Shown here: piece after piece, positions 5,811 through 32,636 of the stretch | How the letters are laid out: every line of letters starts with the position of its first letter | Numbering within the stretch: the first letter of the stretch is position 1 | Origin: an uncultured virus (IMG/VR IMGVR_UViG_3300031994_000070) | Taxonomy: Duplodnaviria > Heunggongvirae > Uroviricota > Caudoviricetes | DNA: 64,000 bases | Reading direction: 5' to 3' (one strand) | Virus record (IMG/VR): IMGVR_UViG_3300031994_000070 | Made by a program: the position numbers and the translations under genes | Notes under the pieces: generated by a model | Databases searched by the model: none | Told to the model about the DNA's origin: nothing | The model's input: the letters and a program-made list of their open reading frames with translations, nothing else

Positions 5811-5832
5811 TACGGGAAGGAGGTAATTTATT

Positions 5833-6504: not shown

Positions 6505-6506
6505 TT

Positions 6507-6707: not shown

Positions 6708-6728
6708 AGGAAAGGAGAAAAGAAACGT

Positions 6729-7160: not shown

Positions 7161-7173
7161 AAGGAGGTAGCCT

Positions 7174-9654: not shown

Positions 9655-9666
9655 GGAGGAGAAAAT

Positions 9667-12054
9667 ATGGCAAGAGTTATAAATGTGACAGATAGCGTCA
9701 CTCTTCATCCTGTTGATTATGATAGTGCTAATTCTTCTTATTCTGGCGTAAGTAGTTCATATCCTATTTCAAATGGATATGATTCTGCTTCAAGTACAAA
9801 TTATGCATATATAACTTGTAGAACTGGTTCTTGGGCAGAGTCTTATATTTCATATACTTTCAATGTATCTAGTATACCTGCAGGAGCTACAATTAATTCA
9901 GTTGCGTGTAGTGTTAAATCAAGAGTAAGTTCTACTTCTTACTTACCTACATCTACTATTCAATTATATTGTGGTTCTACTGCAAAGGGCGCTGCAACTT
10001 CAGCTTCATCTACATCTGCCACTTCACGTTCTATTAGCAATACTGGTTCATGGACATTAGCTGAATTAAGCGATATTCAAGTTCGACTTACTGGTGAACG
10101 CAGTAATTCAAATGCAAATCGTGCAGCTTATTTATATTTTTACGGAGCAGATTTAACTATTAATTATAGTATTAATGGCACAGCTTATACTATCACGGCG
10201 TCAAGTTCGGTTGCTTCAGCAACAGTAACCCCAGCTTCACAAGAAGTAATGAGTGGTGAAGAAGCGATTGTGCGTATTGATGCAGCAAATATTGATGATG
10301 TTGTTGTAACTGATAATGGTATTGAGGTAAATAATTTATTAGAACAGCACCAAGTTGAAACTGGTGGGGCTTTATCTAAAACCGCTGAGTCGCAAACAAC
10401 AAGCGGCATTCAAAGTGGAACAAGTTACGCTGCATATGCAGTCGGGCGTAGCGCTGAAAACCCATACAGCTCAACTAACAATATGTACGCTTCTAGTGGT
10501 TCTAATGGTTATGTTACATACAGTTTTGATTTTAGCGATATTCCAAATAATGCTACAATCACTAATATTGAAGTAAAGGGGTATGGCCATAGAGAAAGTT
10601 CAAGTGTTAGTAGTAGCTATAAAGCAATGGTTAGTTTATATTCAGGCTCTACTCAAAAGGGCGATGATTATGAATTAACGAGTACATCTAATTATCTGTT
10701 TACTGTACCAACACCCGGTACTTGAACTCGTTCTGAATTACAAAATGCAACTTTAAGATTTACTGTAGGATATTATGGCGGATTGCTTTGTGGTATTACA
10801 TGAAATGTAACATACACAATGCCGAGTGCCGGTAATGATTATTATTATACATATACAATGTCGAATTTATCGGCAGACCACGTTATTTTAGTTGACGAAG
10901 CCGGTGTATTTATTCCACCAGAAGAAGACCCAACAGAAACATATTGGCCAATCACAATCTCAAGTATTAATGCGATTACTAATCCAGCAAATGGAACCGT
11001 ACGTGTTGTTGAGGGCGCTAATCAGACAATTACTATTACGCCTAGCGACCCGCAACTAACTCTTGCGCTTGATAATGGTGTAGATATTACAAGTCAGTTG
11101 CAAGGCGGCACACCAAATAATACTTATACAATTGATACACAAGTTAGTGGCGCCAATTATGGGTTTTATTTAAATAACTCAACTGGTTATTATGTATCGA
11201 CAAATGATGGCGTGAACAAATCTGCTTCTGTGGCAAGATTAAATATGAATTTTGAATCAGAATGTTTGGTTACAATTCAATATATAAATTATGCCGAAGC
11301 AAATTATGATTATGGTATGTTTGGTAAGTTAGACACTGAAGTTGCAACAGATGGACTTACGGCTTCTAGTGGCGGTTCATCCCCTTCAGATTCAACTTCA
11401 CATTATCAAATCGCAAGATGCACTAACTCAAGTTCTGCGCAAACTGTAACTTATGAAGTTCCGATGGGAGAGCACTTTATTGATATTAAATATGGTAAAG
11501 ATGACGCTTCAGAAGATGGATATGATAGTTTACAATGAAAAGTATTAAGTGTAGAGGCCACTTCTATTGGAGGAGATTATACATATACATTAACAAATGT
11601 TACTCAAAAGCATAGCTTAATCTTTGTATTTGGTGATGTAGATTTTTGGTACATTACTTCATCTGGTACCTCAGGAATGCGCTTATTCCCTGATGGACAA
11701 CAAGTTAAATTAGACGGAGATGGTTATGTATTAAATATTGTTCCAAATAGTGTTAGTTCAACTATTACAATTACTGATAATGGAAATAATGTTACACCCC
11801 AATTAGAGCGTGAAACTGGTGTTGATAAAAATAATAATCCTGTTGTAAGTTATAAATATAAATTAAATAATATCTCTGCAAATCATACAATTAATGTAGT
11901 GGCCGGAGATGCTACGATACAATTATATGTAAAAGAAAATAATACATGAAGAATGTATTCTAAAGTTTATAAAAAAATAAACGGCTCTTGAGTAGAGCAA
12001 TCAGATTTATCTAGCGTATTTAGCACGTCTGCTAATTACGTTAAAGGTAATTAG
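9667..12054 (+). CDS. Tail fibre/adhesin-like protein, 795 aa (5 in-frame TGA=Trp)
   Basis: Joins track ORFs 9667, 10819 and 11677 through TGA at 10723, 10801, 11536, 11947 and 11989. GT(TGA)TRSEL matches the internal repeat GS(TGG)TLAEL. Ends YVKENNTW..YKKINGSW..TAG. Confidence 0.85.
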
Positions 12055-12071
12055 AAAGGAGAGAGATAGAC

Positions 12072-13043
12072 GTGCCTAGTGAAATAAATTTAACAAAATT
12101 AACCATTAATCATGTCGCAAGCCAAGCAGTTTATGATGCGATGGTAAATAAAGGGCTGATTAATGATAATGAGCTTTATTTAATTCCTGGTGATAATACA
12201 TACGTATTACCAATAGCGAGCGCATCGAGTTTAGGCGGTATTAAAGTTGGCAGTAATTTAAGCATTGCTGATACCGGTGTTCTGTCTGCGGTAGACTCAA
12301 AATATGATTTATCTAAATCAAGCACTCGAAGCGGATATACAGGAATTGATATTAAACTGACGGGCTCTGATGGCGCAACTGGCCAAAATAATTATGTAAA
12401 TATACCGACTGCAACACAATCTGCGCTCGGTTTAATGACTGCGGCAGACAAAAAGACTTTAGATGATTTAAGTGGAATAGATGGTTTTAGTAAAGTTAGA
12501 GTTTATACAAGTAATAATGCTTATACTGATGTAGCAGCAAATGATATTGAAGATACTTTAGTTTTTAAATCAGGCGGTAATATAAGTTTTACCCCAACAG
12601 ATAATGATAATACAATTATTATTAGCGCAAGTGATACTAAATATGGGGCAACTAGTAAGTCTATAGATATTATAAACTCAATTACAAGCGGTGTTGCTGC
12701 TACATTAACAACTGAAACTGTAAATGTTGGCGGTATTAAGTATGGTAGCACATGAACTACTCCTTCAATGACCAAGAGTAATGTTACAATTCCAAATGTA
12801 ACCAGTGCTGGTACTGCAACAAATGCGTCTGTGTCTGCTGGAGTGCTGACCATTACTAATGGCACTGCTCCTACGCTAGGAACTGCATTAACTGCTACAT
12901 ATATTAGCGCGTGGGATGCTGGAACATTACCAGAAACAGAATCGCAGAGTTTTGAAGCGGTTAAATCTTGGACAACAAATACTCCAACAGTTGTTACTAA
13001 AAAATCACAGACGGTGCTTACTGCGCTGCAGGCGAATGGTTAA
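12072..13043 (+). CDS. Tail fibre-associated protein, 323 aa (1 TGA=Trp)
   Basis: Joins track ORFs 12072 and 12768 through TGA 12753. N-terminal motif is shared with the 18375 and 20643 genes; contains a LPIAS.S.LGGIKVG fibre motif. Confidence 0.8.
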
Positions 13044-13062
13044 TTAAAGGAGGGATAAAGAT

Positions 13063-16000
13063 ATGACTTATATAGCAAAAACAAAGATAGGTAATACTAC
13101 ATATCCAATTGGCTCTGCTTTATATGGAACTTGTGATACAGCTGCGAATACTGCTAATAAAACGGTTACATTATCTGATTTCGATACTTTAATTACTGGC
13201 GTTACATTACATGTAAAATTTACTAATAGTAATACCGCGGCAAGCCCAAAATTAATAGTAGGAACAGAAGGTCAAGCAAAATCTATATATAGATATGGCA
13301 CTACAGTGCCTGGTACCACTGCAGCAACTTCATGGCCTGCTGGTGCAGTTGTTTCATTCACTTATACTGGCGATGCCTGGATTATGAATGATTGGAATAA
13401 TACTGATACATGAACCGCAATGACTGGAGCTACCTCTGCTGCTAATGGTAGTGGAGGATATATTAATGCTACCCCACCTAAAGACGGATATAACACAAAA
13501 TTTTGGCGTGCCGATGGCACGTGAGCCATTCCTGCAGATAATAATACTGATACATATGTAGGGTCTGCGGCATTTGCGGATGATAGCACATCTAATGCCA
13601 CTAATCCCGTAAAAATGACATTAACTTATGCGGGCAGTAATGCTGGAGCACAAATAGCCGCAAATATTCCACAAGTATCTAGTTCGAGCGCTGGTGTCGC
13701 ACCAAAAGGAGCGACTGTAAGCACACAAACTCAAAACACTAAGTTCTTACGTGAAGATGGTACTTGGGCTGCACCAAGTTATACGACAAACACCAATACT
13801 GACACTTTAGTAAAACAAGAAAATTCAACAGCAAACTCTACACTGAGAGTTTTATTATCACATGATGCGAATGATACTACAGCAACAAATTCTTCGTATA
13901 AAAGCGGAAAATTAACGTTTAATCCATCTAGTGGGACACTTACTGCTACAAATTTACGAGGTGCATTAACTTCAAGTCAAGTAACAACGGCTCTTGGTTT
14001 TACTCCTTATACTAAAAACGAAGTAAATAATTTAATTGCAAGTGTATTTCATTATAAGGGCACCAAAGCCACAGTAGGAGATTTGCCTTCTTCTAGTAAT
14101 ACAACTGGTGATGTATGGCATATTACTGCAGATGGTAGTGAATATGTTTGGAATGGCAGTGCTTGGGAAGAATTAGGCACAGTTATAGACTTAAGTGGTT
14201 ATGCCCAATTAAGTGGAGCTAACTTTACTGGCCCAGTTAATTTTGGTGATTCTGTATCTGCCGACGACTTAACAGCTGGCCAATTATTGGTTACTGGAAA
14301 TGCAAGTTTTACAAATAATATAAGTGCAAATACTATTAACGGGGTTGAGGTTGGTAGTAATCCTAAGTTTACGGATACTGTTTATACTCATCCAACTCAC
14401 ACTTCTTATAATAATGGATTGTATAAGATTACTATTAATAATTTGGGTCATGTAACATCAGCTACTGCAGTAGCTAAAGCAGATATTACTGGGTTGGGAA
14501 TTCCAGCTCAAGATACTACTTATTCAACAGCCACTTCTAGTACATTAGGATTAGTTAAAATAGGGTATGCTGCTAATGGTAAAAATTATCCAGTTCAATT
14601 ATCTAATGGACAAATGTATGTTAATGTTCCTTGGACAGATACCAATACAGATACAGATACACATTATACAGCTCATTTAAGAACTGCAAACTCAGCTACT
14701 AGTACTTCTCAAGTAACAACAGCTACTTCTAATCCATATCTAAATTTAATTGAAGAATCTGCTCTTCGAGATAGTGTTAGAATAATGGGTGATGGAGCTA
14801 CTACAGTAACATCTAGTGCTGATGGTAAAACCATTACTGTAAAAAGTACTGATACTAATACTCATAATACATCTTATTTATATGCTGGAGCTTCTAATGG
14901 TAGTGTTAATGCAACAACTACATCTGGTAATACTTATTTAATTAATGTTGATGGTGGTTCTGCTACTAGTAGAATAAAATTAGTACCTGGTAATAATATG
15001 AGTATTACATCTGATGCAAGCGGAAATGTAACATTTGCAGCTACAGATACTAATACTTGGCGTGGTATTCAGAATAATTTAACTAGTGATAGTACAACAG
15101 ATTCATTGAGTGCGGCACAGGGTAAAGCTTTAGCGAATGGTAGTGCGAGGGATAATACCAAATTGCCACTCGCTGGTGGTACAATGACTGGTGCAATTTC
15201 TCGTGCTGGAGTATCTACTAGTTGGAATAAAGGTAGAGATAATGTATTAATTAAAACAACCTCAATTAATGGATATACTCCATTGTGGTCAGCTAAGACT
15301 ACTAATGGTTCTTGGGATGTCGGTACTTATGACAATGCTAGTTATACAGATGATTTAATTTTTAGTTATATAACTGATACTAATTATGCTAATAATAATG
15401 CTACAACTGCACAAATTAAATTTTTAGAAAATGGACATATAGTTGGTGCTTTAGATGGAAATGCAACGACGGCTACTGAATTTAGTTCAAATGCTACAGT
15501 TGCATTGACTGGAGATACTACTGGTACTAGCGCAGGAAGTAAAAAATCTTGGAGTGTTGCTACAACAACTAACTATATTACTAATTTAGGTAGACCGGCC
15601 AGTGCAGATTATTTAACGCCTAGTTATTTATCTAAAGTACATTTTTGTTTAGCAAGTAGTTCAATGACTACTCATAAGCCACCAGCTGGTGATGGATATA
15701 TAACTACTTATCATTGGGATAATAGTGGATGGGCAGCTCAATTTTATTTAAGGCACGATAAAAATGACCCTTCTCCAATGGTTAGAGGGGCAACTAATAG
15801 TAGTAATACTTCGGATTGGGGCGAATGGAAATATATTTTAACTGAAGCTAATTATACTAATTATACCGCAGATATTAATGGCGCTGACCAGACTAGTAGT
15901 GTATCTATATATGCTCCTACTGCTGGCGGTACCGCAGATACTCAAGCACTTGTTGGAGATGGTGCGACTAAAGCACCAAAATGGGTTAATATTTCTCCCG

Positions 16001-16410
16001 GCATTTCAATTACAGCTGGGGATGCAAGTAATGCTCCAAAAATTAATGTTACAGTTTTAGGTCGTAGTGGAACAGCACAGGCAATTACTAAAGCATCAAC
16101 TAGTGTATATGGCGTTACTAAATTATCTTCAACTTCCAGTAGTTCAGAACAAAGTTTAGCTGCAACACCTAAATTAGTATATGATTCTATTGCAGCGCTT
16201 GATGTTTCTAATATTTCTGGTTTTGGGGCAGGAAAAACTTTGGCTACATTAACCGAAACAAATGGTAAAATTAGCGCAACATTCCAATCAATTGCGATTG
16301 CGCCATCACAAATTACAAGTACAACTAATGACAATGGAAAAACATTAATTTCAAATGGCACAACAACTGAATGGGGAACAAGAACATTAGTACAAATAGT
16401 GAGGTGGTAA
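13063..16410 (+). CDS. Long tail fibre protein, 1115 aa (2 TGA=Trp)
   Basis: Joins track ORFs 13063 and 13615 through TGA 13411 and 13522. KFWRADGT(TGA)AIP matches KFLREDGT(TGG)AAP in the same gene. Contains LG.VK, LSAAQGKAL and LPLAGGTMTG fibre motifs. Confidence 0.85.
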
Positions 16411-16413
16411 ACT

Positions 16414-17163
16414 ATGGCAATATATTTAGGCACAGATAAGGTAAGTTTAGCGGGAACTAATGGGGGATATGGTCTTAATGGACGTTTGCTTTTAACAAAA
16501 ACTTATTCTATTAATTTAGGGCAGACTAATTATAGTAGTTTAACGCCAAGTACTACTTCTCAAAATTTAACTTTACCAGCAACAACTTATAGTACCAGCG
16601 GAGGAAGTACAATTACTTGTTTTCGTATTGGAGAAGCATATGACGGGACAAAAATTGATTTTAATCAACATGATTATATGGGGTTTGCAGAATGTATTAC
16701 AGAATATAATTATGGAAGTAATAGTGTAAGCGGGACAATTCATCCAATTAGACATTGCCAAGTTAGGGATTATCATGAAGGCAAGTACATTGATAGTATA
16801 AATTCTACTACAGGAATATTAAACACTTCAGCAACTTTTAGAAAAGGTTCTTCATATATTCAAACTCCGCATGCATTATTATATCAAAAAGCTGATAATA
16901 CATATGGAATTACTAATAGTGGATGCGGTATATATCATTCTGGAACGGGCTCTATTAGTTGGTCTACAAATTCTAATTATATTGATTTAATATTAGGCAA
17001 TGTTGCGATGGTAATTAATACTAGTTATGTTCCAGAAGCCGCATTTACTGCAATAAATCCAGCAAATACAACTATAACAATGACTTGGCACCTTTATGAA
17101 TGTGATAAAACAGCCTATGGATATGAATATTCACGTGCCTATGAACTTGCGGCAAATCATTAA
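16414..17163 (+). CDS. Hypothetical tail-associated protein
   Basis: 249 aa ORF with GAGGTGG RBS, in the tail operon. Confidence 0.65.
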   Translation: MAIYLGTDKVSLAGTNGGYGLNGRLLLTKTYSINLGQTNYSSLTPSTTSQNLTLPATTYSTSGGSTITCFRIGEAYDGTKIDFNQHDYMGFAECITEYNYGSNSVSGTIHPIRHCQVRDYHEGKYIDSINSTTGILNTSATFRKGSSYIQTPHALLYQKADNTYGITNSGCGIYHSGTGSISWSTNSNYIDLILGNVAMVINTSYVPEAAFTAINPANTTITMTWHLYECDKTAYGYEYSRAYELAANH

Positions 17164-17266
17164 TATAAAACAAGAACAGCTGCATAATTAGACTTTCATA
17201 ACAATTTTAAGTAGAATATTGCGTAGAATCATTTGATTATACAGAATCAAATAGAAAGGAGCAAAT

Positions 17267-17578
17267 ATGGATATTAATACACTTATAACTTATTTAATTT
17301 CTCCAGCTGGACAGGTGGCATTAATTATGGCACTTGCAGAGCTTATTAAAAAGCAAGAATTGTTTGCATCAAAATATATCTTTTATGTAGACCTTATTTT
17401 TGGTGCAATGCTTGGTATGGGAGTATTCTGGATATATCAAGGAATGCATCCTGTTCTCGCTATACTGGCCGGACTTGGCGAAGGACTTATGGCCGCTGGT
17501 GTATTTAGCGGAATTAAAAATTTAAGAGAAGCATATGATGACCCTGAGTTTGTAGAAGGGAATGAAGAAGATGAGTAA
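17267..17578 (+). CDS. Putative holin
   Basis: 103 aa with three hydrophobic segments, a GL..GL.A.G..S..KN pattern and an acidic tail; overlaps the lysin start. Confidence 0.7.
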   Translation: MDINTLITYLISPAGQVALIMALAELIKKQELFASKYIFYVDLIFGAMLGMGVFWIYQGMHPVLAILAGLGEGLMAAGVFSGIKNLREAYDDPEFVEGNEEDE

Positions 17579-18335
17579 GTACACAGGAGCATATCCCAGC
17601 GTATATACCACTATTAATTATCAAAAAAGATTAGCTAACGAGGCCAATAGACTTGCATATGCTGGTAGACCTAAAGAAGCTGCTTATCCTAATGGACATC
17701 CAACAGCTCAATGAAAGGCGGCTCAAAATAAAGTTGCAAAAGGATTCAAATATTGGTCAGATGCTAGTCGTAGAGGATTTTCTTGTGATGTAGGCGCTGG
17801 AGTAACCATTAGGTCGGTGTATGATAAAAATATGCCCCTTGGGTTATGGAAACAATTAAAATATATGAATGCCCACCCTGAGGCATATAGAAAAGTATCT
17901 CCAGCAAATGCGCAGCCTGGAGATATTGGACATTATACAAAAAAGGGTGTTAAAAGAAGAGGCCATATTTTTATAGTTGGCGAAGGTAATAAAATTAAAG
18001 AAGCTTCTGCTGGCAATTGGGCTTTCTCAACCACAAGCGCTCATAATGCTCGTTTTGATATGAACAATAAATCAAGATTAACAATATTCAGGGTAGTTAA
18101 TCAACAAAAATATACCCCTTTAAAGCAGGGGTCTAAAGGTGAAGAAGTTAAGAAACTTCAAAAATACTTAAATTGGTATTTTAAAGGCGATAAAAATTTA
18201 AAGGCTCTTAAGGTCGATGGAGATTTTGGGCCAATTACCAAGGCTAGAGTAGAACGTATGCAAAAGAAATTAAAGGTAACTGTTGACGGAATAGTAGGCA
18301 CGAAAACATTAAAGGCAATGCAACAGGTTAAATAA
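17571..18335 (+). CDS. Endolysin, NlpC/P60- or CHAP-like catalytic domain plus PG_binding_1 domain, 254 aa (1 TGA=Trp)
   Basis: ATG 17571 overlaps the holin end; TGA at 17712. Contains FSCD..PGDIGHY..GHIFIV and C-terminal LKQGSKGEEVKKLQ..VDGDFGP..VDGIVG. Confidence 0.8.
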
Positions 18336-18374
18336 TTTTTATTGCTAATCTAATTGGAAAGGTAAGATAAAATT

Positions 18375-19136
18375 ATGTCTGAAACACACGATTTGTCAAC
18401 TTTAAAAATCAATTTTTTAACACAGGCGCAATATGACGGTGCGACTGTAAATGATGATGAAGTTTATATTTTAACTGATAGTGGAAAGGGGGCCCAGACA
18501 GCGGCCCCCGCAACAACCGGCTATGCAACAGCCAATTTAAAAAATATCGTTTTGTCAAGTGAAGACGCTACAAACGCAACTGATTATCCAAATGGAACAG
18601 TATGGATGAAGTACGGTAGTGAAATGACATTACTTGATATGTTTTACCCAGTCGGTAGTTATTATGAAACCAGTGATGCAAATTTTAATCCTGAGACTAG
18701 TTGAGGTGGTACTTGAGAGCTAGAAACAGCTGGGCGAGTACATGTATCAGCAGGTACTGGATATAGTACTGGAGCTACTGGCGGTGCGACCAGTGTTAGT
18801 TATACGCCTAGCGGTACTGTAGAGAATACATCTGTTACTCCTAAAGGAACTGTTGGTAATCATACACTTACGATTAATGAAATTCCTTCACATTACCATG
18901 GATTTAATGCATATAATGGTGGTGTTGGCGCCTCTTCAGCAATTCAAAGAGGCTGGTATGGTACGACGTCTGAAACATCTGTGCAAAATACCAATGCTAA
19001 AGGCGGTGGAGGAGCTCATAATCATGGTTTTACTGGTACAGCAGAAAGTCATAAGCATACTTTTACCGGCACTGCTAAATCAATTTCTGTCATGCAACCT
19101 TATATAGTTGTTAATAGATGGCATAGAACGGCATAA
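18375..19136 (+). CDS. Tail protein with T4 gp10-C-like baseplate domain, 253 aa (2 TGA=Trp)
   Basis: YPVGSYY..NPETS(TGA)GGT(TGA)EL..HTLTINEIPSH.H..MQPYIVVNRWHRTA; TAA 19134-19136. Confidence 0.85.
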
Positions 19137-19147: not shown

Positions 19148-20605
19148 ATGGCTAATAAAAGTGGGAGTATATATGGTAATTATGTAGGAAATACTAGCTA
19201 TGGTTATAGTTACAATCGTTTGCGTATTGATTGATATGAAGATGCAAATAGCATAAATAGTACAACTAACACATCAACTGTATATGCAACTGTATATTTA
19301 GAAAATTCATTTGGGTCACATTCCGATGGAGACCCAACATGGGTAACTTTAACAATAGATGGAACTAGTTATAACGCAACTTTAAATTATTGGTCAGGTT
19401 CAACTGTAACCCTTATATCAAAATCAAAAAGTATAACTCATACTAGCAATGGGTCAAAATCTATTACAATTTCAGCAAGGTTTGATACTAATGGTACTTC
19501 AACTGGCGTAGTAACAGCAAGTGGCACTGCGGTATTAACTACAATTAATTTATGAAGCAACGCTTCTGTTGCAAACAATGGCACTACATCACCGCAAAAC
19601 TCTGCAACTGGAACACTTAAATGGAAAGGAACTAATGGCACTAGTAATGCAATTACTGGGTATACTGTTAAAAAAGGTTCAACGCAAGTTTATTCAGGTA
19701 CGGCGACATCTTGCACGGTAGATTTGGCTTATGGCACAAATACTTTTACAGTAACTGCTACGGCACCACATAATTCCCCAAGCGTAAATATAAGTATTGT
19801 ACGTTATCCAGTATTAAAAATACAGCATAATTTAAATGGCGGCACAATAGCTGATGCACCACATCAAGATGGAACAAATAGTCGTTGATTTAAATACTCA
19901 AACAATTTAGTAACAGTTTCAACAACTACAGCTGATGGGCCATATTCTACACTGGTTTCATCAATGACAACCGCTGATTCTTATATTAATTTATGAAACG
20001 TTGCAACATATAATGCGACTAAAACTGGGTATCATATAACTGGTACTAAAGCATATAATACTAAAGCGGATGGCACTGGGGTTGATATTAATCAAGAGTC
20101 GACGGCCAGTAGCACAAATGTCGCTAATACTACAAATTTAAATGGCGGTACAACATTAACCGCAGATAAAACAGTTAGTATTTATGTTAATTGACAACCA
20201 AATTCTTATACAATTAAATATAATGCGACTGGTGCAATAGGAAGTACTAATTCATCGACCCATTATTATGGAACTAGTAAAAAATTAACAACGAATGGTT
20301 TTACCAAGCCTGGCTATATTTTTTATGGATGAGCAACTACTCAAGCCAAAGCGGATGCTGGAACACGTGATTATACGAATGGCCAGTCAGTTTTAAATTT
20401 AACTTCATCTAATGGTGGTACAATTAATCTTTATGCTGTTTGACAAGCAGCGCCGCCAACAAACAAATATGAATTACCAATAGCTGCAAACACAGATTCT
20501 GAATGATTAAAATTATATAGCTATTGAGCAAATATAAATAAAACTTGAAAGAAAATACAAGATATTTGAGTCAATGTCGATGGGACTTGGCGCAAAGTCT
20601 TTTAA
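19148..20605 (+). CDS. Minor tail/adhesin protein with DUF859-like N-terminus and InlB B-repeat (Listeria-Bacteroides repeat) domains, 485 aa (11 TGA=Trp); absent from the supplied track
   Basis: No TAA/TAG over 1458 nt; AAGGAGGT RBS. GYIFYG(TGA)AT and LYAV(TGA) place TGA at the conserved Trp positions of the repeat. Confidence 0.85.
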
Positions 20606-20642
20606 GACCTCCTTTGAAATGTAGGAGGGGGGGGAGGAATAT

Positions 20643-21218
20643 ATGGCAAGCACACAAAATTTAACTGAATTCAAAATAAACTATCTCACCCAAGAACAAT
20701 ACAATATAGCTCTACAGAATGGGCAAATTAATTCTGATGAGTTGTATTTTACTCCCGAAGATAGAGGAAAAATAATAGTGTCTAATCAAGACGCTTCAAC
20801 CCCAGAGGCATATCCTGAAAATAGTATTTGATTAAAATATGGAGATGCGAGTGGAGGCCAGGCTGACTGGATAGTTGACCAAGGCGCGAGCGGAATTTGA
20901 ACCTATAGAAAATGGGCAAGCGGTGTTGCAGAGTGCTGAGGCCATTTTTCTAGTAGTAGTTTAACTTGAAATAATTATGGTACTCCAACAAATGGGTATG
21001 CAATGTATTATTCGACACCAGTTGATATTGCTCTTCCTTTTACGATGGCAAATGCTAATTATTATGCTATGGCTACCGCCGCAGCAGTAGGGAGCAACGT
21101 CGGTTGGACTGCCGGTATGCGTACGCGTACTACGACACAAGTCGGATTGAGTTTTGTAAGAAATGGCAACACAGGAACTGTTAGTGCTGATATATATATT
21201 AATGGACAGTGGAAATAA
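20643..21218 (+). CDS. Tail protein, 191 aa (4 TGA=Trp)
   Basis: DWIVDQGASGI(TGA)TYRKWASGVAEC(TGA)G is a common phage tail motif. YPENSI(TGA)LKYG matches YPNGTV(TGG)MKYG of the 18375 gene. Confidence 0.85.
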
Positions 21219-21234
21219 GGGGGTGCGGTAGTCT

Positions 21235-23592
21235 ATGTCAACAAAAACAGGCTATATTAAAAACTCCGGCCCTAAGGATGCTGCATTTGATGATGGCCCA
21301 CATATTGGTGGTGTTATTAAATTTGTTTGTACCAGAAGTTCAGAAACATCAAAAAATGTTTCTGTTACAGCTTATTATTATTTAGGTTTTGGTAGTTATG
21401 CTAATTCAAGTGCGTCTTATACTCAATATCAAGTAACTATTTACGCATGAGAAGGTACTTGGTCAGATAGTACTCATCCATCTAAAGTTATTAATAGCAG
21501 TGGTACTAAATGGAAGTGTATTAGTAATACAGCTACCTATTTTTCTGCACATGGTGATGATTCAAATATTGACGTAAAAACTAAGCCTACTCAAAAAACT
21601 GGAACAATAGGTAGCTGGACTATTTCTAATTGGACAAGTGGTTCAAAAACATTTAAATTTCAAATGCGTGATAATGGCTTGCAAGATACATATACAGTAT
21701 CAATTGCTGCGCCATCTTATACTAGCACTATTACTGCTACTGTTGTATCAGCAGATACTACTATGGGTACTGTTACTGGAGGCGGAACTTATACTTCTGG
21801 CGCATCATTTACCATTACAGCCACTCCTAAAGCAGGTTATGAATTCGTTAAATGGACTTATTCCGGAGGGTGAAGTGGAGGTAATACTAGCGCAAGTGTT
21901 ACTATGTCTCAAACGACATCAGGCACAGCAACGGCTAGTTTCCAAGGCAAGCTACAAACAATTACTTTAAATGCAAATGGTGGCAGCGGTGGTACTACTA
22001 GTGTTCAAATTAGAACAGGCACTGCGGCCGGTAGTTATCCATCAATTACCAAACCAACATATACTGGACACCATTTCTTAGGATACTATGATGCTACATC
22101 TGGTGGCACCCAATGATATAATGCGTCCGGTAACTCAGTGCGTCAATTTACTCTGACGTCTGGAGCTACTTGATATGCTCATTGAGCTTTAAATACTTGA
22201 ACTATACATTTTGACGGGAACGGCGCTACTAGTGGTTCAATGGCCAATCAAACGCATACTTATGGAACAGCATTAGCATTTCCAGCTGTTGGTTTTACTA
22301 AAACTGGTTATAAATTTAATGAATGGCAATGAACTGGCGCATCAGATGGCGAAATTCGTCATTATCCTGATAAATATAATATGTCAGGTAGTTGAACATC
22401 AACTAATGGCAATACATATAATATGATTGCTCAATGAACTCCTTGTCATGTAACTATTAAATATCATGCTAATGGGGGTACAATTGCTAATGGCTATTCC
22501 AGTGTAGATGGGTTGTGACGGCTTGGTAGTGACAGTTTAGTTGAATTATCAACAGATAATGGCAGCACATGAGCCGATGTTACATCCTCTCCGTCTGTAG
22601 AAAGTACATATTATAATTTATGAAATGTTAGTACTTTTGGATTAAAGAAAACAGGATACCATATTGATACTGAAACAGCTTATGCGTTAAATACAAGTGG
22701 AACTGGTAATTTATTTAATCAGCAAAATACTGCGGCCGGTGAAACTAATCCAGTTACTACAAAACGACTTAATGGCGGCACGGAAATTACTGCGGATAAA
22801 ACAATTACTTTATACGCCAATTGAAAAGAAGATACTGCTACTTTAACTTACAATAACGGAGGCTTCGGTACCGTTCCAGATGCAGTAACAATGCGATACA
22901 CCACTCAAACGGTTGCCGCGAATGCGCCAGAGGTATTTGGCAAAGATTTTTTAGGTTGGAAACGTAGCGATAATAATGCAATTATTCAACCGGGAGATGT
23001 GATTAAAGCTGCTAATGTTATACCAACTAATATAACGTTAACTGCTCAATGGCGCAATAAAATTATTACATGAGGACAAAAAAATAATATTTGAAACACT
23101 GGCAATACTTTATACGCTAAACATGGTGGGGAATGAAAAGAAGTTATTTCCGCTTGGGTATTAGTAAACGGTGTTTGAAAGATTGTCTTTGGAACTGGTG
23201 GCGGCGCTATTGTTGGTAAGCCAATTGCAACGAATACATCCATATCTATGCTTTTGGGGTCATATGATATAGGAAATAATAGCGATGCGGCGAATGCTTG
23301 AATTCGTAATAAAACAGATGATTATGGATGAGTATATATTGATTATGATGAATTGGACGCAATGACTGAAGCGTATGGTGGTACTATTACCTTAAATGTA
23401 GGCAATTGTGGAACAATTTCAATTCCAGAAAGTGACCATGAGCGTTATTTCCCATATGCTTTATGGAGTGATTATGGGGTTGATTTAAATTTACCCGTAT
23501 CTGCTATATGCACAACTTCAACCGGTCAAAATATTCGTATAAATGTCGTAAAAATTAATAATGCTATAGGTTTACAATTTTTATTAAATTAA
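21235..23592 (+). CDS. Adhesin-like tail protein with several InlB B-repeats, 785 aa (19 TGA=Trp)
   Basis: Joins track fragments 21235, 21664, 21904, 22891 and 23353 in one frame with no TAA/TAG before 23590. YAH(TGA), IAQ(TGA) and LYAN(TGA) fall at repeat ends. Confidence 0.85.
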
Positions 23593-23617
23593 ATTCTTGA
23601 AAGGAGGAAAAAATTAT

Positions 23618-25429
23618 ATGAGTTTACAAGTTTGACTTCCTTTAAATAAGGATTTAAGACAAAAAGGATTAAGTGATGTGACTATTACAAATAATGGGGC
23701 TACTTATGATAATAGCGTTGGCTGTCCTATGGGCGGTTGTTATAGTTTTGATGGCTCTAATGATTATTTAACGGGCACGTATGAAGGAACTGATAACATC
23801 ACTTTTGCTGCATGGATTTATTTCCCAACATTACCGGGAGGAAAACATGTTTTTGATGGACGTATTTCTTCAAATGGCGACGTTGGATATCAGCCAATGT
23901 ATATTACAAATACTCAAATTCAAATTGGATGTAGTAAATCCTCATATGTATATTTTAATTATACATGAGCAGCTAATACATGATATCATGTTTGTGTTAC
24001 ACATTCACCATCTGAGGGCAAAGTTTATATAAACGGTGCATTGATTGGAACATCTACCGCAGCAAAAGGGGCAAATTATGGTGCGTTAACATTTACATTG
24101 GGGAGTAGATTCAATCAAGCAAATTATTGCAATGTAAAATTCAATGATGTGCGCATTTACAATGAATGTCTATCAGCAAACGATGTAGCAACACTCGCCA
24201 CTGGATTAGCGGTACACTATCCATTAACTCGGCAAGGTTTTCCTTCAGAAAATTTATTTCAAGCAACGGCATTTGATAAAGAAGAAATAGGTACGTTGTT
24301 TGGTAATAATGCTGGCGGTTGGGAAAATCGACCATGTGGATTTTATAATGGAGCTGCATCAAACCATAATATTGCAAATGGCATAGATACTATTACTGTG
24401 GATAGCGCCAGCAATATAGGTATTGCTTTTTGTAGAAAAGCAAGCGATATTGCACTCGACTCTAATTCATATTATACGATTTCATGTGAAGCACAAAGTA
24501 CACAAACCTCTAAACCGTTATGCATTGGATTATCTTATAATAATGGAAATGCAACAAGTCCTTGGATATGAAGAGGCGGAACCAATCCTCAAAATTTTAC
24601 GGCAGTAAACAAATGGCAAAAATTTACTTTAACATTTAAACCTGATGCGGATACTCAGTATATTGATTATTGTTTTACTGTATCCGGAGAGGCTGGGTCG
24701 TCATTTACTTATAAATTACGACACTGTAAATTAGAAAAAGGTTCTACAGCAACTGGTTGAATTCCAAATTCAACTGATACTCTTGGAAAGTTAATGGGAT
24801 TAAATTCTAATGCAATTGAAGATATTAGTGGCTTTGATATTCATGGTATTAAATCTGATAATTTACAATGAACAGGTGATACGCATATTTATCCAGTTTG
24901 TGCAGATTTTACTTCAGGGCAAAGTTGCGCTATATTAAATCCGCCTGATTATGAAGGTGCTACTAATTTAACATTAGCGGCATGGGTTTATCCAAAAGCA
25001 AGAAATACTGATAGAGATTGTATTTTAATTTATCGTGGTCAATATTTAACTATTGATAGTACGGGGCATTTAAGTGCTTATTCATATGGTAAATCGCCTG
25101 CTGGATACCACAATAGTACAGGCACTATACCATTAAATCAATGAAGTCATATAGCTATTACTTGAGATGCTAGTAATGTAAAATTATATATAAACGGTTC
25201 ATTAGATACAAGTGTGGCTTGCACAGGCGCACTTGCAAATATATCCAAAACAATTGGCTGTATAGGTTTGGAAGTCCATCCCAATTGAGAAAATCCTACA
25301 TCAACTAGTCGTCAATTTATTGGCTCCATTGCTGACGTGCGTGTATATGCAACTGCTTTATCAGCAGCTGATATGACTAAACTTTATAATAATACAATTT
25401 ATTTAAATAATATGCACAATATTGCTTAA
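23618..25429 (+). CDS. LamG (ConA-like lectin)-CBM-like-LamG protein, 603 aa (9 TGA=Trp)
   Basis: MSLQV(TGA)LPL matches MSLQV(TGG)LPL at 58825. Also NT(TGA)YHVCVT..KVYING, LEKGSTATG(TGA)IP and NQ(TGA)SHIAIT(TGA)D..KLYING. Confidence 0.85.
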
Positions 25430-25435: not shown

Positions 25436-25464
25436 TTGACTTTAGCAGAAAAAAACCATATAAT
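25436..25464 (+). promoter_or_regulatory. SigA/sigma70-type promoter for a small ORF and the tRNA
   Basis: TTGACT (25436-25441), 17 nt spacer, TATAAT (25459-25464). Confidence 0.75.
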
Positions 25465-25528: not shown

Positions 25529-25738
25529 ATGTCAGATAATGTAAAAATTTATATAACAGTTAAAGATGTGCGCCAATTTAAAGAATATGAAAGTTTTTTA
25601 TTTGGTGTTAGTTTTAAAGAGCCCGTAGAAGTTTGTGTTAGTGTAGATGAATTAAATAAAAGATATTACTATGACACAATTGAAATGAATGGGCAATATA
25701 TAATTCGACAAACTGGCGAGTATGACTTGCGTCCCTAG
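25529..25738 (+). CDS. Hypothetical protein whose stop overlaps the tRNA 5' end
   Basis: 69 aa, AAAGGA RBS; TAG 25736-25738 lies inside the tRNA. Confidence 0.6.
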   Translation: MSDNVKIYITVKDVRQFKEYESFLFGVSFKEPVEVCVSVDELNKRYYYDTIEMNGQYIIRQTGEYDLRP

Positions 25739-25823
25739 TGTAATGGTAGCACACTGGTCTTCAAAACCAGGGTAACCGTGTCCAAAGCGGTGGGTGTGGG
25801 TTCGAATCCTACGGGGCGTGCCA
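25729..25823 (+). tRNA. UGA-decoding tRNA (anticodon UCA, tRNA-Trp-like) with a 21-nt extra arm, 95 nt
   Basis: Acceptor GCGTCCC/GGGGCGT, discriminator G, encoded CCA end. D-arm GTGT-AATGGTA-GCAC. Anticodon arm CTGGT-CTTCAAA-ACCAG (TCA at 25761-25763). T-arm GTGGG-TTCGAAT-CCTAC. The region between anticodon and T arms is 25 nt. Confidence 0.95.
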
Positions 25824-25829: not shown

Positions 25830-25865
25830 AAAAAAAGGGAGAGCATTAAGCTCTCCCTTTTTTTT
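25830..25865. terminator. Bidirectional terminator where the two transcription arms converge
   Basis: A7-GGGAGAGC-ATTAA-GCTCTCCC-T8. Confidence 0.9.
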
Positions 25866-26310: not shown

Positions 26311-27057
26311 CTAATTCTTTTCGTTGTTTTTTAAGCTATACATGCCGGTTACAATTCCCGCAAAGATTAACCCACCAATTAAATTGCCAAAGTAAGTTAA
26401 CACAAGGTTAGGGAAATATGCCCTCATAATAGCCGTATCTTGACATACCAAGAAATGATATAAATCTAAAGTTGCATGTTCAAATCCGCAAACGCCGAGT
26501 GTGAACATTGAAATCCAAATGGACATTACTTTTTCAAATGCAGAGTCTGTGCGTTTAGCAGTGAATACTCCCATACAAGAAGCTACGCATCCAATAATAC
26601 CTTTAATAAAAGTTTGAAAAAAATTAGCATCTGTTTTCATAGTAATTTCACCAAGTGCTATAGTGCTAATATTTGGAATTTGGCCAGCTCCCCACATCAT
26701 TAAAATAAAAATAATTATTCCAAAAATATTAAATAAAGTAACACATAATGCCGATAGCGCAAATTGTTTCCACGTTAAATCTTTTTTATATGATGCTAAT
26801 GAATATAAAAAATGTGTTGAAAATAAATCAGATTTAAATGTATCACATAAAATAAATCCTAACGGTAATACCGCTGCTGCTATCATTATACTACCAGTAA
26901 ATAATAAAGTTTCCTGGAACATAAATCCAGTTAAACCAATAAAAAAACCAGCAAGCATTCCATTAATTGCCAGCATTAAAAAATTATTTTGTATAGCGAC
27001 ATTTTTTATTTGGGCCTCTTTAATGAATAAATTTGCTGCTTTTGTTAATCCCCTCAT
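26311..27057 (-). CDS. Formate/nitrite transporter (FNT) family protein
   Basis: Multi-TM protein with G.LAG.FIG, GFEH and T.FGNLIGG motifs. Confidence 0.8.
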   Translation of the reverse strand: MRGLTKAANLFIKEAQIKNVAIQNNFLMLAINGMLAGFFIGLTGFMFQETLLFTGSIMIAAAVLPLGFILCDTFKSDLFSTHFLYSLASYKKDLTWKQFALSALCVTLFNIFGIIIFILMMWGAGQIPNISTIALGEITMKTDANFFQTFIKGIIGCVASCMGVFTAKRTDSAFEKVMSIWISMFTLGVCGFEHATLDLYHFLVCQDTAIMRAYFPNLVLTYFGNLIGGLIFAGIVTGMYSLKNNEKN

Positions 27058-29367: not shown

Positions 29368-29871
29368 CTATTCGCGATTTACTCTCCAACCTTCTTCAGT
29401 GCGTTCCCACACGCATTGATTTGAGCTACCGCGCAATTTTAAATTAAGGTCTTTAAAATTTTTATCAAAAGCGCCGTCAATTAAGAAATTAATTTTGGAT
29501 AAGATAGAATTAATCTTTTCATTTTCAAACTGTCTTAATTCATTCATCGTATATCCAGTCCATAAGTATATATTAATATGGGGATAAGCTATTCGAACTG
29601 CACTTACTATATCTTTAACCATATCTAAATTTTCTGATGCTAATGGTTCACCGCCCAAAATAGAAAAGTTTCTTTGAACACCATTAGCCCCAATTAATTT
29701 AATTATTTCCCATTTGGTTTCTTGGGTGTACTCATGACCAGCATTGAAATCCCACGTTTCAGGATTAAAACAGCCATCACAATGGTGTGGACAGCCTTGA
29801 ACAAAGAAAGAAACACACACTCCCTCTCCATTCGTAACATCGTTTGAAATTATTGTATTATATCTATTCAT
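29368..29871 (-). CDS. nrdG: Anaerobic RNR activating enzyme (radical SAM)
   Basis: NGEGV..FVQGCPHHCDGCFN, GGEPL and LRGSSNQ motifs. Confidence 0.95.
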   Translation of the reverse strand: MNRYNTIISNDVTNGEGVCVSFFVQGCPHHCDGCFNPETWDFNAGHEYTQETKWEIIKLIGANGVQRNFSILGGEPLASENLDMVKDIVSAVRIAYPHINIYLWTGYTMNELRQFENEKINSILSKINFLIDGAFDKNFKDLNLKLRGSSNQCVWERTEEGWRVNRE

Positions 29872-30463
29872 CTGTTAACATACCTTCCGCAAACATCGCT
29901 CCAATAGAATTACCAAAAACAACTAATAGCCATTTTAATAGTGCATCCCAGGAGTGTATTACATATAAATATGGCGCATCTGCAATACAGTGTTCACTTC
30001 CTATCAATATAAAAATTATAATTGCCCCAACTGTGATAATGGGTATTTTACATTTAACGGCTATATGAATTAAAAACCCGCATAAACACCCATATAATAA
30101 CATTGATAATAAAGATTTAGAAAATTTAACTGTTGCGATTTGAATTAATATATTTGAAAATTCAATATTAGCGCATGCATACATAGTAACAACTAATAAA
30201 ATACCTAAACAATTACCAATAAAAATCAAAATATAAGGTTGAGATATTTTATTAATAGCAAAACCAATCTTACCAGTATATAACGGAATTTGTAATTGGA
30301 TAATTGCTAAAAGTCCAAAACTAAATAAAGTGGCACCTAAAATGGGCGGGGTGGTTAAGAGGTTAATGATAACCCCAAAACCAATCAGTACCCCAGCAAT
30401 AACGCTTTGTTTAAAGTTTTTTACTATGTTTAAATCTATCTTCGACTTCTTTTTGTTTTCCAT
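29864..30463 (-). CDS. Short formate/nitrite transporter (FNT) family protein between nrdD and nrdG
   Basis: AG.LIG.G, LFSFGL, LYTG, G.LCG.L, GSEHCIAD and GNSIGA motifs. Start uncertain (ATG 30463 overlaps the nrdD end). Confidence 0.8.
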   Translation of the reverse strand: MENKKKSKIDLNIVKNFKQSVIAGVLIGFGVIINLLTTPPILGATLFSFGLLAIIQLQIPLYTGKIGFAINKISQPYILIFIGNCLGILLVVTMYACANIEFSNILIQIATVKFSKSLLSMLLYGCLCGFLIHIAVKCKIPIITVGAIIIFILIGSEHCIADAPYLYVIHSWDALLKWLLVVFGNSIGAMFAEGMLTDE

Positions 30464-32636
30464 AATTAAATGCAGTTTTATAATCACCAGTTAAATAACC
30501 GGTTACTCTTCTTAATCTTTGAATATGTGTTGACCCACACTCTGGGCAAGCATTTCCTATCTCACCTGTCCAACCGCAATCAAGACATGTATCAGCTGGA
30601 ACATTTACTGCAAAATATGGAATGTCTTTATCCATAGCATAAGTTACAATTTGTTCAAGTGCAGGAATATTCTTTAAGATAGCGCCCTCTAATTCAACAT
30701 ATGTAATACATCCAGCGCTAGAATATCCAGTTAACTGACTTTCAATATCTATCTTATCGAAAGGTGAAATTTCTTTCCATACAGGAACATGCATTGAATT
30801 TGTAAAATATTCTCTGTCGCTTACATTTGGAATCTTGCCATATTGCTTTTGGAATTTTTTCATAGCGGTATAGCAAAGATTTTCAGCGGGGGTATAATAT
30901 ACTCCAAAATTAAGACAATATTTATTTTTAAATTCTGCACATCTTGTTTTAAATAATTGTTCGATGTGTTTTGCTACTTCCATACCTTGGTCGGTTGTAT
31001 GGTCGCAACCAATAAGAATTTGAAGAGCTTCTGCTAATCCTAACTGACCAATTACAATTGTTCCATGCTTTAAAGCACTTCTAATACCTTGCTCTGGGAT
31101 ATAACCAGCCATTGTGCCATTCTCATACATAAACTTTGCACTTGAGGCATCTTGTGAACAAATATAATCAAATCTTTCTAAAAGCATATCCTTTGCATCA
31201 AAGATTGCCTTATCCAAAATCTTGAAGAATTCGTCAACAATATCTCCGCCTTCTTCAACTGATTCCTTCGCCTCCATTGCAAGAGTTGGAAGTATAATTG
31301 TTACTGGACAAATATTTCCACGACCATCTTTAAGCTGGCCAAAGCCGTTAATATCAAAGCCATTCGCCGTGCGGCATCCCATTGTACTGAAATATGTACG
31401 AGGGTCATTTCTATCATATCCAGCATTACCACTCCAATCTACATTTGCATAGTTTGGATATAAACGCTTTGCGGTTGATTCAAGAGCCAGTTGGAATAAG
31501 TCATAATTCGGTGTGCCGGGTTTGTCATTAACTCCTTTCATATATTGGAAAATTCCGCAAGGGAAAATTGGAGTTTTATGAAGTTTGCCGACACCTTTAA
31601 TTGAGCCTTCCAAAAGTGCCTTAATAACCATGCGCCCTTCTGGTAATGTGCAAGTACCATAATTAATTGAAGTAAATGGTAATTGATTTCCTGACCGGCT
31701 TTGCAGTGTATTTAAGTTGTGATACATGCCTTCAACCGCTTGCTGAGTTTCTTTTTCAGTCATTGCTAATGCATATTTATAAACTCTGCCATCATATGCC
31801 TTCCACTCTGGGTCGGTAATTCCGTATTCAGTGCAGTTATGTAACATATGCTCTATTTCATAATCAATTTCATCGATGGGTTTATCATTGATAAAACACC
31901 ATCCATCAATATAATGTTTAGCGAATGATTTTCTTACATAAGGAACCATCGTCCAATCTAAATGACTTGCACTTACTCCACCAAACTGTTGTAAAGATTG
32001 TAACTGGAATAATACGGCTACTAATTGGAATGCAGTATTTACTGAATTAGCTGGGCGCACATCAGTTTGTCTTGTATTAAATCCTTTTGCTAATAAATCA
32101 TCAAAAGGAACTGTTAAACAATTATGCATACCAATAGCATAAGAATCTAAATCATGAATATAAATACGATTGTTTATATGATTATTGCGAGATAAATCAG
32201 ATAATAAATTATCAATCGCATATTGTTTCATAATTTCATTTGAGGCTTCACCCCTACGACCACCGAAACTTTTTTCATCGACGTTCGCATTTTGATTAAC
32301 AACGTTCGATGCATCGAGCTTTTCTTTTACTACTTTCATTAATTGAGCGTTGCGGTTTCTTGCGCGGGTGCGCTCATCTCTATATGTGATATAAGCTCTA
32401 GCTACATCTTTACGTTTACTACTCATTAAACCATGTTCTACAAGGTCTTGAATTTCTTCTACCTCTAAAACTTCTTGGTCTAATCCTTCAATATGGTCGG
32501 CTATATTATGTGCTTTTTGTTTTGCAAAATCACTAATTTCACCATCAACGGCTTCAAAGCACTTTAATACGGCGTGTTCAATTTTCTCTCTATTAAAATC
32601 TGTGTGCCGACCATCTCTCTTAATTACTTGTTTCAT
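30411..32636 (-). CDS. nrdD: Anaerobic (class III) ribonucleoside-triphosphate reductase with ATP cone
   Basis: VIKRDG ATP cone, TMGCRT, TPAENL, CxxC..CxxC and the glycyl-radical motif RRVTGYL. Confidence 0.97.
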   Translation of the reverse strand: MKQVIKRDGRHTDFNREKIEHAVLKCFEAVDGEISDFAKQKAHNIADHIEGLDQEVLEVEEIQDLVEHGLMSSKRKDVARAYITYRDERTRARNRNAQLMKVVKEKLDASNVVNQNANVDEKSFGGRRGEASNEIMKQYAIDNLLSDLSRNNHINNRIYIHDLDSYAIGMHNCLTVPFDDLLAKGFNTRQTDVRPANSVNTAFQLVAVLFQLQSLQQFGGVSASHLDWTMVPYVRKSFAKHYIDGWCFINDKPIDEIDYEIEHMLHNCTEYGITDPEWKAYDGRVYKYALAMTEKETQQAVEGMYHNLNTLQSRSGNQLPFTSINYGTCTLPEGRMVIKALLEGSIKGVGKLHKTPIFPCGIFQYMKGVNDKPGTPNYDLFQLALESTAKRLYPNYANVDWSGNAGYDRNDPRTYFSTMGCRTANGFDINGFGQLKDGRGNICPVTIILPTLAMEAKESVEEGGDIVDEFFKILDKAIFDAKDMLLERFDYICSQDASSAKFMYENGTMAGYIPEQGIRSALKHGTIVIGQLGLAEALQILIGCDHTTDQGMEVAKHIEQLFKTRCAEFKNKYCLNFGVYYTPAENLCYTAMKKFQKQYGKIPNVSDREYFTNSMHVPVWKEISPFDKIDIESQLTGYSSAGCITYVELEGAILKNIPALEQIVTYAMDKDIPYFAVNVPADTCLDCGWTGEIGNACPECGSTHIQRLRRVTGYLTGDYKTAFNYGKQKEVEDRFKHSKKL

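Follow-up and report, generated by a model that had tools for sequence, protein, structure and literature searches.

How is the suppressor tRNA of a phage that reads UGA as tryptophan charged by a standard-code host? The question is raised by a tRNA gene in the 64,000-nt stretch of DNA analysed here (the window), record IMGVR_UViG_3300031994_000070 of IMG/VR, which belongs to an uncultured Caudoviricetes virus. The gene lies on the + strand at 25729-25823 and, read directly, encodes a 95-nt tRNA(UCA) with five arms, the additional one being a hairpin of 5 bp and 7 nt (loop GUCCAAA) in the variable region. We propose that this tRNA is the opal suppressor of a TGA-recoded rumen phage and that its extra hairpin, a pseudo-anticodon arm displaying CCA, is probably a handle for charging by the tryptophanyl-tRNA synthetase (TrpRS) of the host, a reading to which we give a probability of roughly 0.65. 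In the proposed mechanism, Trp would be inserted through the UCA arm at the UGA codons that abound in the tail and lysis genes. The hairpin, built as an anticodon arm (5-bp stem, 7-nt loop N-U-C-C-A-A-A) and not as a class-II variable arm, displays the cognate Trp anticodon and would so restore to TrpRS the C34 C35 A36 signal lost from the decoding arm. Together with the discriminator G73, it would let the host's own enzyme charge the tRNA, so that no phage synthetase would be needed and the amino acid chosen would be independent of the codon read.

The gene is the sole tRNA that ARAGORN finds in the 64 kb, where it is labelled 'tRNA-SeC (tca)' because its anticodon is UCA, and for no other reason. 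The general tRNA model (RF00005) is the only Rfam family to reach its threshold in the window, scoring 55.7 bits (threshold, 29); the match takes in the whole of model positions 1-71, and the variable region holds 22 inserted nt. Folded for minimum free energy (-32.2 kcal/mol), the RNA forms the five-armed cloverleaf; the folding z-score against shuffles, -1.0, is uninformative in either direction. A 7-bp acceptor stem with two G.U pairs (25729-25735 with 25813-25819) is followed by a D arm with a 4-bp stem and a 7-nt loop (25738-25752). The decoding anticodon arm at 25754-25770 has a 5-bp stem (CTGGT/ACCAG) and the canonical 7-nt loop of an opal suppressor, CUUCAAA (25759-25765), with UCA at 25761-25763. 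A 5' linker, GGUA (25771-25774), separates it from the pseudo-anticodon arm at 25775-25791, in which a 5-bp stem (ACCGT/GCGGT) closes the loop G-UCCAA-A with CCA at 25782-25784; a variable-region hairpin that displays a cognate anticodon loop in this way has the form of a pseudo-anticodon variable (V) arm (PMC7590224). The 3' linker, GGGU (25792-25795), has the length and place of a class-I variable loop, and its last U could pair with A15. The T arm (GTGGG-TTCGAAT-CCTAC, 25796-25812), the discriminator G73 at 25820, a bacterial Trp identity element (PMC9976931), and an encoded CCA end (25821-25823) complete the gene. The initial annotation of this locus had described the second arm, and its coordinates are correct to the base throughout; sequence and fold both bear the arm out.

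TGA means Trp in this phage. The four tail and receptor-binding genes directly upstream of the tRNA (19148-25429, +; open reading frames (ORFs) under code 4, with PHROG/Pfam tail, Flg_new and Laminin_G_3 matches) contain 43 in-frame TGA codons against 23 TGG, and the late genes before them (9667-19136, +; code-4 ORFs with PHROG/Pfam matches to tail fibre repeats and to an endolysin with PG_binding_1) contain 11 more. In-frame TGA is absent from most replication genes. Reading the window under code 4 in place of the standard code raises the coding fraction from 0.53 to 0.87 between 18 and 38 kb, and from 0.83 to 0.86 between 38 and 58 kb. When the tail protein at 23618-25429 was searched with TGA as X and aligned with the best 120 of 390 homologues, its nine TGA columns held W in 594 of 933 non-gap cells (W background, 2.5%) and Ser in 23. 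Five of the columns hold 85-118 W out of 120; columns 516 and 557 are not W-rich, and both lie in poorly conserved stretches. Furthermore, a paralogue pair within the window reads MSLQV[TGA]LPL in one copy and MSLQVW(TGG)LPL in the other, and TGA also occupies the conserved W of Flg_new-type repeats. The tRNA(UCA) lies in a phage with in-frame TGA at Trp positions of its genes, as is expected of a code-4 opal suppressor, and the four upstream genes need it. By the crude measure of coding fraction, the DNA next to the tRNA in 8 other phages gains 0.08-0.20 under code 4 in 6 stretches and nothing in 2 (L368, L374).

The extra arm is conserved and did not arise by chance. A first search pattern, which fixed the UCA loop and the T loop and left a long gap free, matched at least 117 viral stretches, mostly not UCA tRNAs; among the matches listed, UCCAA was present in the extra arm of all 23 viral tRNAs that ARAGORN called tca. 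A tighter pattern, with the variable region again left free, found UCCAA in 26 of 27 stretches from viral contigs, the exception (L214) not parsing as a tRNA; by our own estimate, chance would place the motif in about 2% of 25-nt variable regions. Applied to one genome per prokaryote species, the same pattern returned 15 stretches. UCCAA occurs in 5 of these, all on contigs of metagenome-assembled genomes (MAGs) and all matches to the general tRNA model; of the 10 without it, 5 reach the Rfam threshold for tRNA-Sec, 1 is a generic tRNA (L234) and 4 match no family. Since the patterns demand GGTTCGAATCC and C32/A38, these matches are a sample and not a census.

We parsed 29 distinct UCCAA-bearing sequences anchored on UCCAA alone, with L029 dropped as a doubtful tRNA. 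UCCAA is invariant in all 29, a set selected for it, and the anchoring brings out a stem of exactly 5 bp around a 7-nt loop in anticodon register: 130 of 145 cells are paired, compared with 75.6 +/- 5.0 for shuffled partners (maximum 95 in 2000 shuffles), and positions six and seven pair at chance level. In a MAFFT alignment of these homologues, which was not fitted to structure, all five pairs of the extra arm show changes on both sides with 89.4% of cells paired. The corresponding values for the decoding UCA arm are 97.9%, also with changes on both sides at 5/5 pairs, and 100% of cells are paired in the T arm. The whole five-armed structure is paired in 96.8% of cells against 70.3% after shuffling (0/500 shuffles as high), and slid partners give 37-47%. 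Linker lengths vary: the 5' linker has 2-7 nt across the family, and the 3' linker, with the consensus NGGU, has 4 nt in 20/29, 3 nt in 8/29 and 5 nt in 1/29. Thus the covariation that the initial annotation proposed to look for is present among homologues, and the loop, whose variation in sequence or length would by that account have spoken against the idea, is constant in both. The G32 that it had called atypical is normal in the family: across the 29, position 32 is occupied by G (13), C (12), U (3) or A (1), and position 38 is A in 25.

A blastn search of GenBank phages with the tRNA brought up no relative, its single result being a partial match of 34 nt that lies under a hypothetical protein of Bacillus phage Eldridge. 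Two further kinds of match stand apart from the family. One, the generic tRNA (L234) on a Chloroflexota MAG contig, is an 85-nt tRNA(UCA) whose D arm is of class-II type and whose variable arm, 16 nt long, has the loop CACCAAG, in which CCA is present and UCCAA is not; this tRNA could be one more version of the design, or else a suppressor of Ser type. The other is a stretch shared by five viral contigs (L010, L017, L025, L028, L052) that ends like the 3' half of tRNA-Trp (a T arm, then CCCCTGCCA), with no tRNA called and a proper anticodon stem lacking; they could be tRNA genes that are split, degenerate or interrupted by an intron.

The body that carries the two arms resembles that of a tRNA-Trp, as the initial annotation had suggested. 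G73 is present in the window and in 28/29 homologues; it is among the determinants of Trp identity for both E. coli and B. subtilis, and A1-U72 is also named as one (PMC9976931). The first pair is A1-U72 in 25/29 of the family, G.U in 3/29 and G-C in 1/29, and the window, with G1.U72, lacks A1-U72. CCA at 34-36, missing from the decoding arm (UCA), is found only in the extra arm. When compared with 35 other phage tRNAs from the examined loci, the six closest were all tRNA-Trp(CCA). Additionally, in five phage loci (L040, L046, L059, L091, L099) the arm-bearing UCA gene has a normal class-I tRNA-Trp(CCA) gene of 74-76 nt as a neighbour, at a distance of 4-130 nt. In L046 the anticodon stems of the two tRNAs are identical, so that the UCA arm has the look of a Trp arm copied with C34 changed to U. 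U31-A39 is kept in 28/29 of the UCA arms and in 11/29 of the CCA arms, which fits the CCA arm being the accessory one. Class-II-type D arms occur in 5/29 sequences, and therefore the extra arm occurs on more than one scaffold. The best explanation is that the tRNA(UCA) is a tRNA-Trp derivative, the opal suppressor of the phage, with an anticodon arm that is now UCA.

The same pseudo-anticodon principle is found in amber suppressors, where the sequences point to its application to Gln. An analogous free-gap pattern for CUA loops matched at least 115 viral stretches (L253-L367), and among the matches listed, 39 distinct long-armed viral tRNA(CUA) were recognized. The extra region, a small hairpin, shows [C/U]UGA, that is, the Gln anticodon CUG/UUG followed by A37, in 32/39, with U33 in 20; UCCAA occurs in 0/39. 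In the viral UCA sequences the counts are 25/25 for UCCAA and 0/25 for the Gln motif. The seven exceptions among the listed tRNA(CUA) comprise two with UCUGC, four with class-II D arms of Ser/Leu/Tyr type and one that is doubtful. At least SerRS and LeuRS ignore the anticodon. The loop tracks the amino acid to be loaded and not the stop codon, as a synthetase signal predicts.

Both kinds of suppressor were also met around relatives of the DNA polymerase of the phage. The examined flanks of 80 loci around such relatives (37-86% identity) contain no tRNA(UCA). Matched by contig name, two of the relatives, L177 (the L055 contig) and L180 (the L223 contig), have a CCA-arm tRNA about 30 kb away; a third, L126 (the L300 contig), has a CUA suppressor instead. 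Across the relatives at 37-63% identity (L126/L300, L168/L269, L177/L055, L180/L223), the suppressor is either a CCA-arm UCA type or a CUG-arm CUA type. Therefore, the recoded stop codon switches within one polymerase lineage.

Activity data for the arm-bearing family already exist. In a preprint, Seki et al. tested 31 phage tRNA-UCA in a cell-free E. coli system (PMC12636597), and we sorted the rows of their supplementary table (media-1.xlsx) by eye for the presence of the arm, with an activity cut of 25,000 relative fluorescence units (RFU) chosen during the re-sorting. All 13 arm-bearing UCA tRNAs are active, with RFU_TGA values of 26,699-58,947 (median 48,745) against controls of 5,403 without tRNA and 69,124 for the wild type; the group includes tRNAUCA-26, which has the loop CUCCACA. 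Only 2 of the 18 arm-less UCA tRNAs are active, and the other 16 give 5,437-11,695. The association between arm and activity has a Fisher p of 5e-7 at the 25,000 cut and a Mann-Whitney p of 1e-5. A cattle member of the set, tRNAUCA-5, shares with the window both linkers, the T arm and the 3' acceptor strand; by eye it differs at about 10 of 95 positions, including compensatory changes in both anticodon-type stems, and its RFU_TGA is 55,739. Mass spectrometry in the same preprint reported Trp for all 13 non-orthogonal UCA tRNAs analysed, which the legend of Fig. S5 leaves unnamed. Since 11 of the 31 are orthogonal by the authors' count and 13 of the remaining 20 are arm-bearing, at least six of those analysed should be arm-bearing. 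The AP1 and HF2 tRNAs, which are paired with a phage TrpRS and were inactive without that enzyme, have no extra arm in our sorting. In the CUA rows with CUG/UUG arms, UAG suppression is mostly near the wild type (18 rows shown, of which two have the motif match in the T arm and one armed row gives 10,163). Taken together, these preprint data show that in E. coli extract the arm-bearing family acts as UGA suppressors that insert Trp, and by analogy the tRNA of the window would be expected to do the same.

If the host enzyme does the charging, a phage synthetase should be dispensable. No TrpRS-family gene (PF00579) is present in any of 15 arm-bearing phage contigs, 8 of which are at least 90% complete, and a Pfam/PHROG profile search of the 64-kb window found neither a TrpRS nor a release-factor domain. 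A pattern for short-armed (class-I) tRNA(UCA) gave 13 matches in viral contigs, and a TrpRS-family gene lies within 3 kb of the tRNA in 2 of the 10 contigs tested; three of these 10 matches are not tRNA(UCA) calls by ARAGORN, and several of the contigs are incomplete.

Several points weigh against a charging handle and keep our confidence at the level given above. The synthetase contrast (0/15 vs 2/10) is not significant (p = 0.15) and is a hint only. Activity in E. coli extract was also measured for two UCA tRNAs that lack the arm (tRNAUCA-18 at 50,795 and tRNAUCA-12 at 28,797; PMC12636597), and therefore E. coli TrpRS does not require the arm. The arm-less group of that assay is heterogeneous and confounded, showing to the eye two rows longer than 130 nt and several bodies unlike tRNA-Trp, and the set retains 9 low-confidence tRNA-UCA predictions. 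The Gln-type arms of the amber suppressors are shorter, mostly 3-5 bp, and the acceptor stem of the window (G1.U72, C2-G71, U4.G69) departs from the B. subtilis set. Direct contact between TrpRS and the arm, and the way in which the arm would reach the enzyme, are what we infer from the patterns above. In a crystal structure of human TrpRS with tRNATrp, the tRNA bridges both subunits of the dimer: its anticodon loop lies in the helical domain of the other subunit, and its variable region makes no contact with the protein (PMC1538984), so that a static contact with a variable arm would need a different geometry. Even so, the suggestion of the initial annotation that the CCA arm serves as a handle for host TrpRS as the UCA arm decodes UGA gains support from the data as a whole.

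Other explanations of the arm were weighed. It could be conserved for a different job, such as competition with release factor 2 (RF2), binding to EF-Tu or the ribosome, recruitment of an enzyme that modifies the anticodon loop, or service as a decoy for a host anticodon nuclease. Conservation alone does not name the partner of the arm, charging of UCA tRNAs in E. coli extract is possible without the arm, and the window itself encodes an RNA ligase and kinase and phosphatase genes of the tRNA-repair kind. However, the correspondence between loop and amino acid (CCA in UCA suppressors and CUG/UUG in CUA suppressors, with no cross-occurrence among the 25 + 39 matches listed) is predicted by a synthetase signal and not by an effect on the ribosome or on release factors, and we consider a job of this sort unlikely. 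We regard it as very improbable that the arm is a functionless leftover from duplication of the anticodon arm. The two arms are alike in size and their loops match at 5/7 letters, but the loop has remained invariant while the five stem pairs and both linkers vary, and the arm sits on different bodies, 5/29 of them with class-II-type D arms. A DNA contig of a related strain, from another study, that spans a 1-kb stretch around the gene (995 nt) has 16 differences, none of them inside the tRNA. A single RNA-library contig carries a C-to-T change at 25735, which turns C7-G66 into U.G.

Processing of the 95-nt RNA is hardly credible as an explanation. Removal of either 21-nt unit leaves, by arithmetic, a canonical 74-nt tRNA, and the initial annotation had accordingly considered a precursor cut or spliced to tRNA(UCA) or tRNA-Trp(CCA). 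No joint that skips either arm was found in the 4 contig sets examined, and among the RNA-library contigs, which cover parts of the stretch, one of 153 nt covers 25638-25790 unbroken. This is weak evidence, as these are contigs only, DNA may be present, and neither transcription, its ends and level nor mature length is shown by them. We know of no bacterial activity that removes such a 21-nt unit. Transcripts of the family processed by RNase P alone were active in the cell-free assay (PMC12636597), and the idea has found no support. We give practically no weight to an ordinary class-II tRNA that inserts Ser or Sec at UGA, for which a long extra arm and G73, both features recognized by SerRS (PMC9976931), and the ARAGORN label could be cited. 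The TGA columns nevertheless hold W and not Ser (594 vs 23 of 933), and mass spectrometry reports Trp for 13 phage UCA tRNAs (PMC12636597), so that charging with Ser, the other outcome by which the initial annotation would have abandoned its proposal, does not apply; with these columns and a D arm of class-I type, tRNA-Ser was rejected despite the arm and G73. The 7-nt UCCAA loop is absent from the 5 cellular matches at the Rfam tRNA-Sec threshold. In tRNA-Sec the acceptor has 8 bp and the T stem 5 bp, and a D stem of 6 bp closes a 4-nt loop. The window tRNA has a 7-bp acceptor and a 4-bp D stem with a 7-nt loop, and the general tRNA model beats the tRNA-Sec model (RF01852) in clan competition; a tRNA-Sec identity was rejected on these grounds.

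A charging handle for TrpRS could be one case of a general design, in which phage suppressor tRNAs are two-headed adaptors that turn a UCA or CUA arm to the ribosome and a CCA, CUG or UUG arm to the synthetase. This generalization is speculative and we hold it to be possible but doubtful, particularly in its boldest form, a bistable five-way junction whose arms exchange the anticodon position. The CCA arm, the near-constant 4-nt 3' linker and the T arm have the geometry of a class-I tRNA, and therefore such an exchange might occur. The CCA arm would then take the anticodon position on TrpRS and the UCA arm would take it on the ribosome, so that TrpRS would be presented with a genuine tRNA-Trp(CCA) and the ribosome with a UGA reader.

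The gene stands where two modules of a large phage, of which the window is a part, converge. Late genes for tail-fibre, receptor-binding and lysis proteins lie on the + strand between about 0.3 and 25.4 kb (matches to PHROG tail families, Flg_new, Laminin_G_3, an endolysin with PG_binding_1), and genes for replication and nucleotide metabolism fill the - strand between 25.9 and 58 kb (DNA polymerase, primase, DnaB, RecJ, topoisomerase II, NrdD/NrdG, dUTPase, RuvC). Near-identical DNA occurs in sheep and goat gut metagenomes from several studies. Immediately upstream of the tRNA, a 69-aa ORF with no Pfam or PHROG match (25529-25738, +; from the ORF list) overlaps the 5' end of the tRNA by its last 10 nt. 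The related strain differs at 8 sites within this ORF, every one at a third codon position, and therefore the ORF is probably a real gene, one that is probably co-transcribed with the tRNA. A consensus scan places a sigma-70-like promoter match upstream of both (TTGACT-17-TATAAT, 11/12 consensus letters, 25436-25464, +); with 5 matches of this kind in the region and 5.1 expected, it is a lead only. Downstream, a terminator scan picked out a hairpin of 15 pairs with an A-run before it and a T-run after it (25830-25864), likely a two-way terminator between the converging late and replication modules.

Three observations on neighbouring genes can be added. A tRNA-repair-like set, consisting of two metallophosphatases, an AAA_33 kinase-like protein and an RNA ligase (PHA02142 OB-fold and RNA_ligase domains), lies at 54352-56714 (-) and 60639-61868 (-) and could guard phage or host tRNAs against anticodon nucleases. 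Two genes of the formate/nitrite-transporter family (26311-27057 and 29864-30487, both -) flank NrdD (30411-32636) and an activase-like gene (29368-29871). Formate is the reductant of class III ribonucleotide reductase (RNR), and the phage may import its own RNR reductant through these transporters. Finally, an SPP1-type holin gene (48503-48817, -) carries one in-frame TGA amid standard-code replication genes; as proposed for other recoded phages, the timing of lysis may depend on the suppressor through this codon.

Recoded phages with tRNA(UCA) have been described by Borges et al. (10.1101/2021.08.26.457843) and Seki et al. (PMC12636597), and the window agrees with them in the UCA anticodon, in TGA-recoded late and lysis genes beside standard-code replication genes, and in the insertion of Trp. 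Borges et al. proposed reliance on host TrpRS and supposed that host TrpRS and GlnRS are "intrinsically susceptible". The supplement of Seki et al. lists and assays members of the arm-bearing family, including the near relative of the window's tRNA, and to that extent the statement of the initial annotation that no tRNA of this architecture had been described must be qualified. The arm itself is mentioned in neither text, as far as their accessible parts go, and the pseudo-anticodon reading and its link to activity are new here. A natural pseudo-anticodon arm for Trp or Gln was found described neither in our searches of full-text literature outside subscription-only papers nor in the accessible parts of the Borges 2021, theta-ribozyme, Zeta crAss-like, Shulgina and Eddy, 4-bp-anticodon-stem, and Giege and Eriani papers.

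The nearest precedent is engineered. In the pseudo-anticodon V-arm tRNAs of Mukai et al. (2020, PMC7590224), a variable-arm hairpin shows GUG (His) and recruits the anticodon-binding domain of the synthetase, and a different anticodon decodes the stop codon. Those allo-tRNAs were man-made and needed HisRS fused to an extra binding domain, whereas the window tRNA is natural, is aimed at Trp (at Gln in its relatives) and presumably relies on a host enzyme that is unmodified. Class-II tRNAs (Ser, Leu, bacterial Tyr and Sec) likewise have an extra helix between the anticodon and T arms, which in tRNA-Ser is an identity element (PMC9976931); the arm of the window differs in its anticodon-arm build (5 bp, 7-nt loop), its fixed loop sequence, the 3-4-nt linkers on both sides and the amino acid, Trp. 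The class-I tRNA-Trp(UCA) of code-4 bacteria and some phages also reads UGA as Trp, but with a short variable loop. In the thrS operator, an anticodon-arm mimic in the mRNA is bound by ThrRS outside the normal tRNA position (PMC9976931). That mimic regulates translation of an mRNA, in contrast to the one described here, which sits inside a working tRNA.

The architecture may help to explain why tRNA finders mislabel such genes, as ARAGORN does with its SeC call, and it yields an explicit rule for designing suppressors that work efficiently without being orthogonal to the host. How a standard-code host charges a phage suppressor is an open question in papers on recoded phages, and a natural pseudo-anticodon arm would answer it. 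If our reading is true, nature has separated the codon that a tRNA reads from the signal for its amino acid, a separation otherwise known only from engineering (PMC7590224).

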